Assembly (NCBI GenBank): GCA_016192845.1
Contig: JACPTI010000091.1
Coordinates: forward strand, 11,444 to 75,443
DNA from: Acidobacteriota bacterium
GTDB taxonomy: Bacteria; Acidobacteriota; Vicinamibacteria; Vicinamibacterales; UBA2999
Direction: 5' to 3'
Length of the DNA stretch: 64,000 nt
The notes beneath the pieces are model-generated. The model was given only the letters and a program-made list of their open reading frames with translations. It was not told the DNA's origin and ran no database searches. This document shows positions 29,870 through 32,800 of this stretch, one piece after another (the stretch's first letter is position 1; each line of letters begins with the position of its first letter). The translations under genes and the position numbers were made by a program.

Positions 29870-32800
29870 TCAGACGCCGACCGCCTCGTACGACAAATTT
29901 GCGGCCAGCCAGCGCTCGACGGCCGCCGTGCTCATCCCCTTGCGGGCGGCGTAGTCCTCGATCTGGTCACGGCCGACGCGCCCGACCGTGAAATACCGCG
30001 CCGCCGGATGGGCCAGATAGAGTCCGCTGACCGAGGCGGCCGGCACCATCGCGCAGCTCTCGGTCAGCGCCAGGCCGGCGCGGTCCGCCTGCAGCAGGTC
30101 GAACAGCTTCGGCTTTTCCGAGTGATCCGGGCAGGCGGGATACCCGAACGCCGGGCGGATGCCGCGGTACCGCTCCGCGATCAGGTCCGCGTTCGACACA
30201 TGTTCGTCGGCGCCATACCCCCAGTCGCGCCGGGCGCGCGCGTGGAGGTATTCCGCAAATGCCTCGGCGAGCCGGTCCGCCAGCGCCTTGACCATGATGG
30301 CGTGGTAGTCGTCATGGTCGCGCTCGAACGCCGCGACGAGCTCCGCCGCCCCGTGGCCGGCGGTCACGGCAAAGGCGCCGACGAAGTCGACGATCCCGCT
30401 GTTGCGGGGCGCGAGGAAATCCGCGAGCGACAGGTTGGGCGTCCCCTCCGGCATCCGCTCCTGCTGGCGCAGCATGTTGAATCTGAGGATTTCACGCCCA
30501 CGGTCATGCCCACGTACCACCGAGGCACCGAGACACCGAGATTCGTTATCAAAATTAGGTCTCGGTGTCTCGGTGTCTCGGTGGTCCGTGATCGGCATGA
30601 CCTCGGCGACCTCAGGGGCATACAGAACGATGTCCTCCCCGTCGGCATACGCGGGCCAGAAGCCATAGACGCCCCGCGGCGTGAGCAGCCCGTCGGCGGC
30701 AATCCGGTCGAGCAGCGCCCGCGCATGGTCGTACAGCTCCCGTGCGGCCGGGCCGTACTGCGGGTGCTCCAGGATGGCGGGGAAGCGCCCCTTCAATTCC
30801 CAGGCGGTGAAGAAGAACGTCCAGTCGATGTAGGGCACCAGGTTCTCGACCCGGACCTCGTCGACGAGGCGCAGCCCGGTGAAGGCCGGGCGCGCGACCA
30901 CATCCGGGCTCCAGTCGAGGCGCAGCCGGTTGGCGCGGGCCGCGCTCCACGGGAGCTGCGGCCGCGGCTTGAGCGCGGCGTGCTGCTGGCGGAGGCGCTC
31001 CTGCTCGGCGCGGTTGGCCGCGACGAACTCCAGCTTCTGCGCCGGGCTGAGCAGGCTCGCCACCACATCGACCGCGCGCGAGGCGTCGAGCACGTGGACG
31101 ACGGGCTGACTGAACTCCGGGGCGATCTTTACCGCCGTGTGCTGCCGGCTCGTGGTCGCCCCGCCGATCAGGAGCGGAATCGTGAAGCCGCGCCGCTCCA
31201 TCTCGCGCGCGACGAACACCATTTCGTCGAGCGATGGCGTAATCAGGCCGCTCAGCCCGACGAGATCCGCCCGCTCGTCGACGGCGGTCTGCAGGATGCG
31301 ATCGGCGGGCACCATCACGCCGAGATTGACGACCTCGTAGTTGTTGCAGCCGAGCACGACCCCGACGATGTTCTTGCCGATGTCGTGGACGTCGCCCTTC
31401 ACGGTCGCCAGGACAATCTTGCCGGGGGCGTGGGACGAGGCGCCCGCCCTGCGCTTGTCCTCCTCCATGTAAGGCAGCAGGTACGCCACCGCCTTCTTCA
31501 TCGCGCGCGCGCTCTTGACGACCTGCGGCAGGAACATCTTGCCGCCGCCAAAGAGGTCGCCGACGATCTTCATCCCGTCCATCAGCGGTCCCTCGATCAC
31601 GTCGAGCGGCCGCGCGAGCTTCCGCCGCGCCTCATCGACGTCCTGCTCGATGAAGTCGATGACGCCGTGCACGAGCGCGTAGGCGAGCCGGTCCTCGACC
31701 GTGCCGGATCGCCACGAGAGATCGTGCTCCTTGCGCGCGGCGGCCCCCTTGACGGTGTCGGCGAACCGGACGAGGCGCTCGGTGGCATCGGGCCGCCGGT
31801 TGAAGATCACATCCTCGACGTGTTCGAGCAGCTCGCGAGGAACATCCTCATAGACCGCCAGCTGGCCGGCGTTGACGATCCCCATGTCGAGGCCCGCCTT
31901 GATCGCGTGAAAGAGGAAGGCGGAGTGAATCGCCTCGCGCACGACGTCGTTGCCGCGGAACGAGAACGACAGGTTGCTGATGCCGCCGCTGACCTTCACG
32001 CCGGGGCAGGTCGCCTTGATGATGCGCGTCGCCTCGATGAAGTTGATGGCGTACTCGTTGTGCTCCTCGAGGCCCGTGGCGATCGCCAGGATGTTCGGGT
32101 CAAAGATGATGTCGAGCGGGTCGAACCCCGCCGCGTCGACCAGCAGGCGATAGGCGCGCTGGCAGATCGCCACCTTGCGCGCGACCGTGTCGGCCTGCCC
32201 CTCCTCGTCGAACGCCATGACGACCAGGGCGGCGCCGTACCGGCGCACGAGCCGCGCCTTCTGCAGGAAATCCTCTTCGCCTTCCTTGAGGCTCAGCGAG
32301 TTGACGATCGCCTTCCCCTGCACGCACTTCAGGCCCGCCTCGATCACCGACCACTTCGAGCTGTCGATCATGATCGGAAGCCTGGCAATCTCGGGCTCGG
32401 TGGCGATGACGTTGAGGAACGTGGTCATCGCCGCTTCCGAGTCGAGCATCCCTTCGTCCATGTTCACGTCGAGGATGTTGGCGCCGCCGCGGACCTGGTC
32501 GAGGGCGACCTCGGCCGCTTCGAGGAACTGCCCCGCCGTGATCAGGCGGGCGAACCGGCGCGAGCCGGTGACGTTGGTCCGCTCGCCGATCATGATGAAG
32601 TTGCTGTCGGGGCGAATCGTGAATGTCTCGAGCCCGGCAAATTGCGTGAATCTCTTCGGGACCAGGGATCCGGGATCCGGGATCCGGAGGTTCTTGGTTC
32701 GGGGTTCGGACCCCGGATCCCCGATCCCGGATCCCGATGCGGGCCGGGGGCGAGGCGGAAGGCCGTGTATCGCCTCGCCCACGGCCCGGATGTGATCGGG

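Follow-up and report, generated by a model that had tools for sequence, protein, structure and literature searches.

In the metH gene for cobalamin-dependent methionine synthase of an Acidobacteriota bacterium, a hairpin element of about 100 nt is translated in-frame as a part of the enzyme's activation domain. The gene lies in a 64,000-nt stretch of contig JACPTI010000091.1 (hereafter the window, that is, the whole stretch of DNA that was analysed), and the element belongs to a dispersed family of hairpins of the Vicinamibacterales whose copies have their arms and stem base in common but unrelated loops. The family probably represents a non-autonomous, selfish palindromic repeat of this Acidobacteriota order, comparable to repetitive extragenic palindromes (REPs) and to MITEs (miniature transposable elements with inverted repeats), of which one copy came to be tolerated in a permissive loop of MetH, in analogy with Rickettsia palindromic elements (RPEs) and intragenic REPs. 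The metH element is not a one-off, since another hairpin is translated in-frame in the same gene and insertions recur at both sites, which are hot spots. The evidence for these statements is presented below, together with the alternative explanations.

Anatomy of the hairpin element inside metH

The left side of the element comprises TTCACG (30491-30496), then CACGTAC and the series CACCGAG-G-CACCGAG-A-CACCGAG-A. Past an AT-rich loop of 18 nt (30542-30559), the right side consists of (TCTCGGTG)x3, the octamers of which can also be written NCTCGGTG, followed by GTCCGTGA. Each arm is made of three CACCGAGN octamers, and the arms delimited by the repeat finder (30511-30541 and 30560-30590, 31 nt each) are 94% complementary, forming a near-perfect hairpin. 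The first-pass annotation of the window, made from the letters alone, had described a hairpin element at 30491-30591; its sequence is as described, and the palindrome is lengthened by an outer stem of 9 bp in which GGTCATGCC (30502-30510) pairs with GGCATGACC (30594-30602). The predicted fold of the element amounts to -67 kcal/mol for the mRNA strand and -72 kcal/mol for the plus strand, with z-scores of -8.6 and -9.0, respectively, and none of 200 shuffled sequences folds equally well. The motif CACCGAGRCACCGAG occurs eight times in the window as against 0.02 times expected, all eight occurrences being confined to the metH element and to an intergenic twin (Table 1). A scan of the whole 64-kb window against Rfam matched no family at the gathering score. 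Consensus scans for terminators and promoters at the metH copy and at the twin found nothing, and the sequences that follow the two hairpins (GAGGCGAAAAG and ATCGGCATGACC, respectively) are without a U-tract.

The host gene encodes a complete enzyme. All five Pfam families expected of MetH score far over their cut-offs (S-methyl_trans, residues 16-323; Pterin_bind, residues 385-623; B12-binding_2; B12-binding; and Met_synt_B12, residues 964-1268), which gives the five-module architecture of cobalamin-dependent methionine synthase. The C-terminal 360 aa match MetH activation domains in the PDB with E=1e-91, and both GDVHDIGKN and a second 15-residue motif are seen in the translation. As had been proposed from the letters, the hairpin is translated without stop or frameshift: the open reading frame (ORF) of 1289 aa is uninterrupted, and the element encodes 38 residues (1046-1083) inside the activation domain (PF02965, residues 964-1268). 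These residues are additional with respect to Escherichia coli MetH, because the alignment to its structures (1MSK, 3BUL and others) splits in two exactly at the insert. In E. coli terms, the position is located between '..DIEIYRDETRTH' and 'HLRQQ', in a stretch reading ..DIEIYRDETRTHVINVSHHLRQQ, which we take to be the turn of a beta-hairpin. A phmmer search with the 38-aa insert among 1.84 billion representative proteins returned a sole match, to an unrelated repeat protein (P0241), the query being too short and of too low a complexity to retrieve further host proteins.

Table 1. Position of metH and of the tandem-armed hairpins in the window
Feature	Coordinates	Strand	Basis or remark
Intact metH ORF (1289 aa; cobalamin-dependent methionine synthase)	29870-33739	minus	ORF list, Pfam, PDB matches
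CACCGAGN-octamer hairpin, translated in-frame in metH	30491-30604	minus	residues 1046-1083
Second in-frame metH hairpin, GGGATCC / GGATCCC heptamer arms	32652-32741	minus	homocysteine-pterin linker
Intergenic twin of the CACCGAGN hairpin	49581-49666		repeat finder, motif count, alignment
Tandem-armed hairpin, GGTTGGT units	18448-18540		intergenic, -69 kcal/mol, z -10.4
Second GGTTGGT-unit hairpin	25194-25283		between convergent gene ends
Tandem-armed hairpin, CAAGTCA units	23973-24062		intergenic
Tandem-armed hairpin, CACGAAGN units	7724-7801		over stop codon (7759) of upstream gene
Tandem-armed hairpin, AGTAGGC units	8975-9047		intergenic
Second AGTAGGC-unit copy	24684-24732		intergenic

A dispersed family of octamer-armed hairpins

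The homology that the first-pass annotation had claimed between the metH element and the twin is borne out, since an alignment of the two extends over the stem base and both arms, while their loops differ. The twin occupies a 147-bp spacer between two convergent genes, one for an M3 oligopeptidase (ending at 49545) and one for a histidine kinase (ending at 49693). When one genome for each GTDB species was scanned with a pattern of two octamers, 8-38 nt and two complementary octamers, 67 hairpins built of CACCGAGN-octamer arms emerged. Thirty-eight of these come from metagenome-assembled genomes (MAGs) of Vicinamibacterales type and have the stem base of the window copies; with the metH element of the window included, the family counts 39 copies with common arms and stem base, in agreement with the earlier idea that it is, or was, copied. 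Their consensus reads ..(T)TCAC..CCACGnAm on the left of the arms and kTnCGTGG..(GTGAA) on the right, for a length of ~85-115 bp. Several MAGs hold 4-10 copies, and the number per MAG reaches up to 9-10. Among the 67 scanned hairpins, a confident ORF was found only for the metH copy and for L040, the copies being overwhelmingly intergenic.

The flanks of the arms are informative about the origin of the element. Because the non-repeat flank (CCACGnAm / kTnCGTGG and TTCAC..) is also present in the metH copies, copying is favoured over an origin in place, in which a repeat expanded by slippage would have been turned into a palindrome by template switching and the likeness to the twin would be due to convergence. 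This latter scenario agrees with the very high diversity of units (GGTTGGT, CAAGTCA, AGTAGGC, GGGATCC, CACGAAGN and others), with the presence of the octamer in unrelated phyla with different stem bases, with a pure (CTACCAG)n array that has no inverted partner at 3511-3608, and with the extra outer stem seen on both sides of the window copy as compared with its orthologue L001, which looks like the product of palindrome-perfecting repair. It is nevertheless quite unlikely, given that a stem base outside the repeats is common to the metH and the dispersed copies.

The octamer itself has a wider distribution. With different stem bases, it was found in hairpins of Gemmatimonadota, Terriglobia, Planctomycetota, Verrucomicrobiota, Chloroflexota and Proteobacteria, for which either transfer or convergence could account. 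A phage vector was considered, and a scan of IMG/VR viral contigs gave one match, the stem base of which is different, and hence no support. In Gemmatimonadaceae Bin5.19 (L004, L005, L014, L015, L022, L055, L064 and L069), the octamer hairpin is the core of a different repeat family; there, the loop (TCATGAGCTCTCTCGGGA-like) and the long flanks (gatcgcgcggtt..ggggag) are conserved, which corresponds to the behaviour of an ordinary MITE, unlike that of the Vicinamibacterales family. Ten matching loci, including L012, L035, L038, L041, L051, L054, L056, L058 and L067, occur in MAG CAZGLC, which is labelled Bifidobacteriaceae. Most of them carry the stem base of Vicinamibacterales type, and this bin is probably mislabelled or contaminated.

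Filled, empty and otherwise occupied sites in MetH orthologues

The orthologue set comprised the best 120 MetH homologues, all from Acidobacteria/Vicinamibacterales MAGs (76-87% identity), and DNA was fetched for five orthologues whose loop peptides resembled that of the window MetH (L001, L150, L151, L152 and L153). All five have a CACCGAG hairpin with the common right boundary GGT(G/T)TACGTGG. Counting the window, the element is thus present at the identical codon in six MetH orthologues (~81-89% identical over aligned residues), and all the orthologous hairpins are still predicted to fold, at -52 to -81 kcal/mol. A search for element-free alleles in relatives had been recommended, and such an allele exists in the sister lineage L154/P0056, where the empty site reads GACTCGG-CGGGA-GGCGAACTG and the peptide YDSAGGELLRF; L152/P0026 has 84 extra nt at this position. 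The orthologue alignment contains no homologous segment of the same length in element-free genes, which have short loops instead. Moreover, metH is under purifying selection, because codon positions 1 and 2 are far less diverged (5-10%) than four-fold degenerate sites (24-48%). With five other orthologues filled and the sister lineage empty, the suggestion that a conserved enzyme can have such an element fixed within it is substantiated.

These comparisons also bear on the reality of the insert. The contig was probably assembled from a metagenome, and palindromes can result from chimeric assembly; however, an assembly artefact, or a metH gene decaying as a pseudogene, is extremely improbable, since the element is found at the identical codon in independent NCBI, JGI and ENA assemblies, the ORF is intact with all domains present and under strong purifying selection, and local synteny with L001 is conserved (the gene directly upstream is for an ArsR-type methyltransferase, and those for DUF349, SpeA, UbiD and ABC proteins are close by). 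Separately, the region upstream of metH in L153 (335-1635) holds fragments of GSIII (N-terminal) and of a DDE transposase of IS1595 type, which indicate a local rearrangement there.

Among the 120 orthologues, large length variation is restricted to two regions of MetH, namely the linker that joins the homocysteine domain to the pterin domain (query residues 331-363) and the loop of the activation domain (query residues 1045-1083). The activation loop measures 6-49 aa, the window copy being the longest; it has at most 12 aa in 44 orthologues (e.g. VVGDELLR) and more than 20 aa in another 44. The palindromes present at the two sites belong to at least five different families. For instance, L155 has a GGGATCC-type hairpin in the activation loop together with a (GGGGATC)n hairpin in the linker (-93 kcal/mol), the metH gene of L156 contains a CCCAACT-type hairpin, in that of L157 a CACCGAG left arm is followed by CCCAACT repeats, and at the peptide level P0045 displays the REP-type insert RADLKVGPY. 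The peptide VRLKPDTTY, translated from a GTAG-type REP of which the window also has copies, was noticed in the MetH linker of P0012, P0013, P0032, P0038 and P0082.

In a neighbour-joining tree, which is only indicative for insert types, the element is patchy, with full copies, half copies and unrelated inserts interleaved. Such patchiness is consistent with an old insertion that was later deleted or replaced many times, and recurrent insertion may also have been its source. A metagenome scan for metH gave at least 80 loci, mostly of distant MetH proteins (55-78% identity) that were used only as outgroups. In none of the 34 distant loci whose activation loop was found by an anchor pattern does this loop contain a hairpin, and the loops are short.

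It could be argued that selection favoured the insert as a new protein loop of the activation domain, for example for an interaction with the partner in reductive activation, and that the palindrome in the DNA is incidental. The insert is indeed kept in several lineages with its frame intact, and the peptides encoded by the arms (TEHRGTEAPR / SRRLGxSVxRG) are fairly similar between orthologues. This similarity follows, however, from that of the DNA arms, whose conservation is just as high where the copies are non-coding; in L153, compensatory changes alter the peptide and keep the pairing; and most orthologues hold unrelated peptides or nothing at the site. Such an adaptive role is therefore very improbable.

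A second hairpin and the insert load of MetH

The second in-frame hairpin of metH, in the linker, encodes 29 residues and folds at -60.5 kcal/mol (z -4.4). Relative to the closest orthologue, L001, which is devoid of it, it is a clean in-frame insertion of ~75 nt. No comparable events were seen in the vicinity, as a comparison of the window with L001 showed five neighbour genes (SpeA, DUF349, ArsR-methyltransferase, UbiD and ABC transporter) to be free of internal indels of at least 4 aa. SpeA was further taken as a control in 120 orthologues from the same clade as MetH, and no internal insertion hot spot was found in it. The mean number of residues per sequence in low-occupancy columns is 0.9 for SpeA as against 15.8 for MetH, and at least eight such residues are present in one of the 120 SpeA sequences as against 77 of the 120 MetH sequences. 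MetH is thus unusual in its insert load, at least against SpeA and the five-neighbour controls. It is plausible, and proposed here, that palindromic elements may tend to land in existing hairpins, or to recombine with them, in such a way that the first tolerated insertion would seed a hot spot.

Slowly evolving arms and rapidly changing loops

In the 39 family copies, the arms with 8 nt of flank are 83-84% identical, whereas the pairwise identity of the loops (46%) is that of shuffled loops (45%). The loops contain 35% GC in a genome of 67% GC. The same disparity is seen within metH, where the mean divergence is 13% for the arms, 40% for four-fold degenerate sites and 52% for the loop; in other words, the rate of the arms is about one third of that of four-fold sites, whereas the loop evolves at or above the four-fold rate. 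The loop of the closest relative, L001 (four-fold divergence 24%), is completely different (61%), whereas that of the more distant L150 (four-fold 41%) is similar (28% different). When pairs were counted in the six metH sequences, 87% of the cells were found paired and three pairs had changed on both sides, with a covariation score that 12 of 500 shuffles matched and that is, with six sequences, suggestive only. Mismatches on the sense strand of the metH arms comprise eight G.T and six A.C, and there is accordingly no sign of selection specific to the mRNA strand. A maintenance of the arms at the DNA level, by concerted evolution or palindrome correction, combined with a rapid turnover of the loop, would account for these observations.

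Alternatively, the hairpin may be kept for a role in cis, either slowing the ribosome for co-translational folding or cofactor loading, acting as an RNase III target that tunes the mRNA, or forming a DNA cruciform that affects transcription. The low divergence of the arms relative to four-fold sites and loop, the stem pairs changed on both sides and the high proportion of paired cells speak for such a role. So do the retention of the hairpin in at least six lineages, the location of the second hairpin exactly in an interdomain linker, the absence of hairpins from the SpeA control and the fact that many orthologues have different palindrome families at these two sites, as though structure rather than sequence counted. 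A role in cis is nonetheless unlikely, for several reasons. The 44 orthologues with the shortest activation loops (at most 12 aa) have no hairpin there, and the closest relative, L001, lacks the one in the linker. The intergenic copies are equally conserved in their arms, which makes this conservation a property of the family and not of metH. Finally, G.U pairs are not in excess over A.C on the sense strand, there is no terminator-like tail, and the covariation is weak and derived from six sequences only.

Origin and persistence of the metH insert

The explanation favoured here, that of a selfish palindrome tolerated in MetH, would involve the following steps. The family usually resides in intergenic spacers, mostly at the 3′ ends of genes. 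One copy would have been inserted, or copied by recombination, into the beta-hairpin turn of the MetH activation domain. Its survival may be attributed to a length that keeps the reading frame, to the tolerance of the activation-domain loop for extra residues, and to arms neither of which can encode stop codons, the CACCGAGN arm being without T in its seven fixed bases and the complementary arm without A. Vertical inheritance through several lineages would have followed, with partial deletions and replacements in others. The additional peptide of ~35-40 residues would then be a passenger, and the hairpin would be retained not through a role in MetH but through something that the family does at the level of its DNA (either concerted evolution or an upkeep of the palindrome by template switching or gene conversion).

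Several points weigh against this explanation. No transposase or RAYT was identified among the selected ORFs scanned against Pfam, a set that did not amount to a systematic search. Likewise, no clear target-site duplication was seen in two filled/empty pairs (L152 versus L154 in the activation loop and the window versus L001 in the linker), although these pairs are 11-20% diverged and short duplications could be obscured. As a consequence, mobility is deduced solely from the copy number and the shared termini. The unrelated loops are not what simple transposition, with copying of the whole element, predicts, and the slow arms (about threefold below the synonymous rate) with their few compensatory pairs could also be explained by a selected functional structure. 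Both intragenic hairpins of the window are in one gene, metH, and the control enzyme is free of such inserts, so that invoking any permissive loop may be too simple. As regards the protein, the loop that bears the insert is presumably surface-exposed, a view not backed by the AlphaFold2 model of the activation domain, which was computed with 45 close orthologues and is unusable (mean pLDDT 47, pTM 0.39).

A broader interpretation can be envisaged. The tandem-armed hairpins could constitute an undescribed class of palindromes in soil phyla (Acidobacteriota, Gemmatimonadota and others), in which the arms are inherited or homogenised and the AT-rich loops are rewritten, or else the metH hairpins could be selected cis-regulatory structures; taken together, these possibilities appear rather unlikely. 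Loops might be rewritten by hypermutation of the extruded single-stranded loop or by gene conversion primed by the arms, and elements might preferentially land in existing hairpins or replace them. If this were true, the two MetH loops would be 'palindrome nests' that perpetuate themselves and by which an essential enzyme is remodelled again and again.

Other repeats and features of the window

In total, ten tandem-armed hairpins are present in the window (nine are listed in Table 1), seven of them intergenic, one over a stop codon and two in metH, and they are mostly located at gene ends. The overlap of the CACGAAGN hairpin with the stop codon implies that its left arm encodes the C-terminal tail of the upstream protein. 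The CTACCAG array at 3511-3608 is pure, comprises ~14 heptamers, and lies between two convergent genes as an 'orphan arm'; it is 78% complementary to an arm of the hairpin at 25189-25229. A separate family of GTAG-tagged REPs (GTAGTGTCCGGCTTCAGCCGGAC) occurs at 13719-13890, 40803-40832, 41057-41091 and 47074-47113.

The region from 58000 to 63000 is an island of low GC content (52-57% as against 67%) that was probably acquired horizontally. It contains an operon for a CoxM/CoxG/CoxS/CoxL-like molybdopterin dehydrogenase on the plus strand (58302-62773), ahead of which lies a 46-nt inverted repeat (57326-57371 and 57536-57581).

Relation to known repeat systems

A precedent is found in Rickettsia, where RPEs insert in-frame in conserved housekeeping genes and add a tolerated peptide; of the RPEs that were initially described, in R. 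conorii, nearly half were located in ORFs (PMC10969869). Like the present element, RPEs are multi-copy palindromes, of ~100-150 bp, found in-frame in housekeeping genes (PMC10969869). They differ in phylum and are presumably unrelated in sequence to the Vicinamibacterales family, which has tandem octamers as arms, unlike RPEs. RPE families conserve the full-length sequence and the peptide, whereas only the arms and stem base are conserved here; and RPEs are often in ORFs, whereas intragenic copies of the Vicinamibacterales family are rare and concentrated in one gene. Considering that the host is an acidobacterium and that the likeness is one of description, the element can be said to work like an RPE, not to be a member of the RPEs.

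Intragenic REPs with GTAG or CGTC tags are known from Opitutus, Thauera and other bacteria, where a single gene sometimes contains two of them (Di Nocera et al. 2013; PMC3733652). REPs and REPINs are multi-copy and mostly intergenic, near the 3′ ends of convergent or unidirectional genes, as is the present family, and the occasional in-frame copies in conserved genes, at times two per gene, are a further similarity (PMC3733652). The lack of target-site duplication may be another, none being clear in the two filled/empty pairs at 11-20% divergence. On the other hand, the consensus ends (CCACGnAm) are without a conserved GTAG or CGTC tag in the 39 copies, and REPs measure 20-40 bp whereas the Vicinamibacterales element has ~100 bp with 31-nt arms. 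The genuine GTAG-type REP family that co-exists in the window is distinct from the CACCGAGN family.

The MITEs (Correia, ERIC, QMITE and others) resemble the family in being small and multi-copy, in having inverted repeats at their termini and in that they are occasionally fused in-frame to host ORFs. They differ from it in that the internal sequence of the family is not common to its copies (loop identity at the level of shuffled loops), in that no parent insertion sequence is known, and perhaps in target-site duplication, which is not evident in the two comparisons made at 11-20% divergence. The absence of a U-tract distinguishes the CACCGAGN hairpin from an intrinsic terminator. Cyanobacterial short tandemly repeated repetitive sequences of the heptamer type, with small dispersed repeats nested in hairpins, are also comparable, as they consist of 7-nt units, often in inverted intergenic blocks, with many units per genome. 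To our knowledge, their in-frame fixation in a conserved enzyme has not been reported, and the phylum is also different. No description of tandem-armed hairpins in Vicinamibacteria or Acidobacteria was found in the literature.

Significance

The event described here, an in-frame palindromic repeat, is of a known kind; what adds to its interest are the hot spots in MetH, the second hairpin, and an architecture that combines conserved arms with unrelated loops. Cases in which selfish palindromes became fixed in-frame in housekeeping enzymes have come mainly from Rickettsia and a few REP-rich genomes; the present one adds the Acidobacteriota, a lineage that is abundant in soil and has been little studied. 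Across the clade, palindromes of at least five families have struck or altered the same two loops of MetH, which gives a natural map of permissive sites in the enzyme. The fact that arms are kept and loops are not means that ordinary copy-and-paste transposition is not the full explanation for this family. In practical terms, such inserts inflate and diversify protein lengths in the annotation of MAGs and can mislead the definition of domain boundaries by homology; they could also serve as fine-scale markers of lineages.

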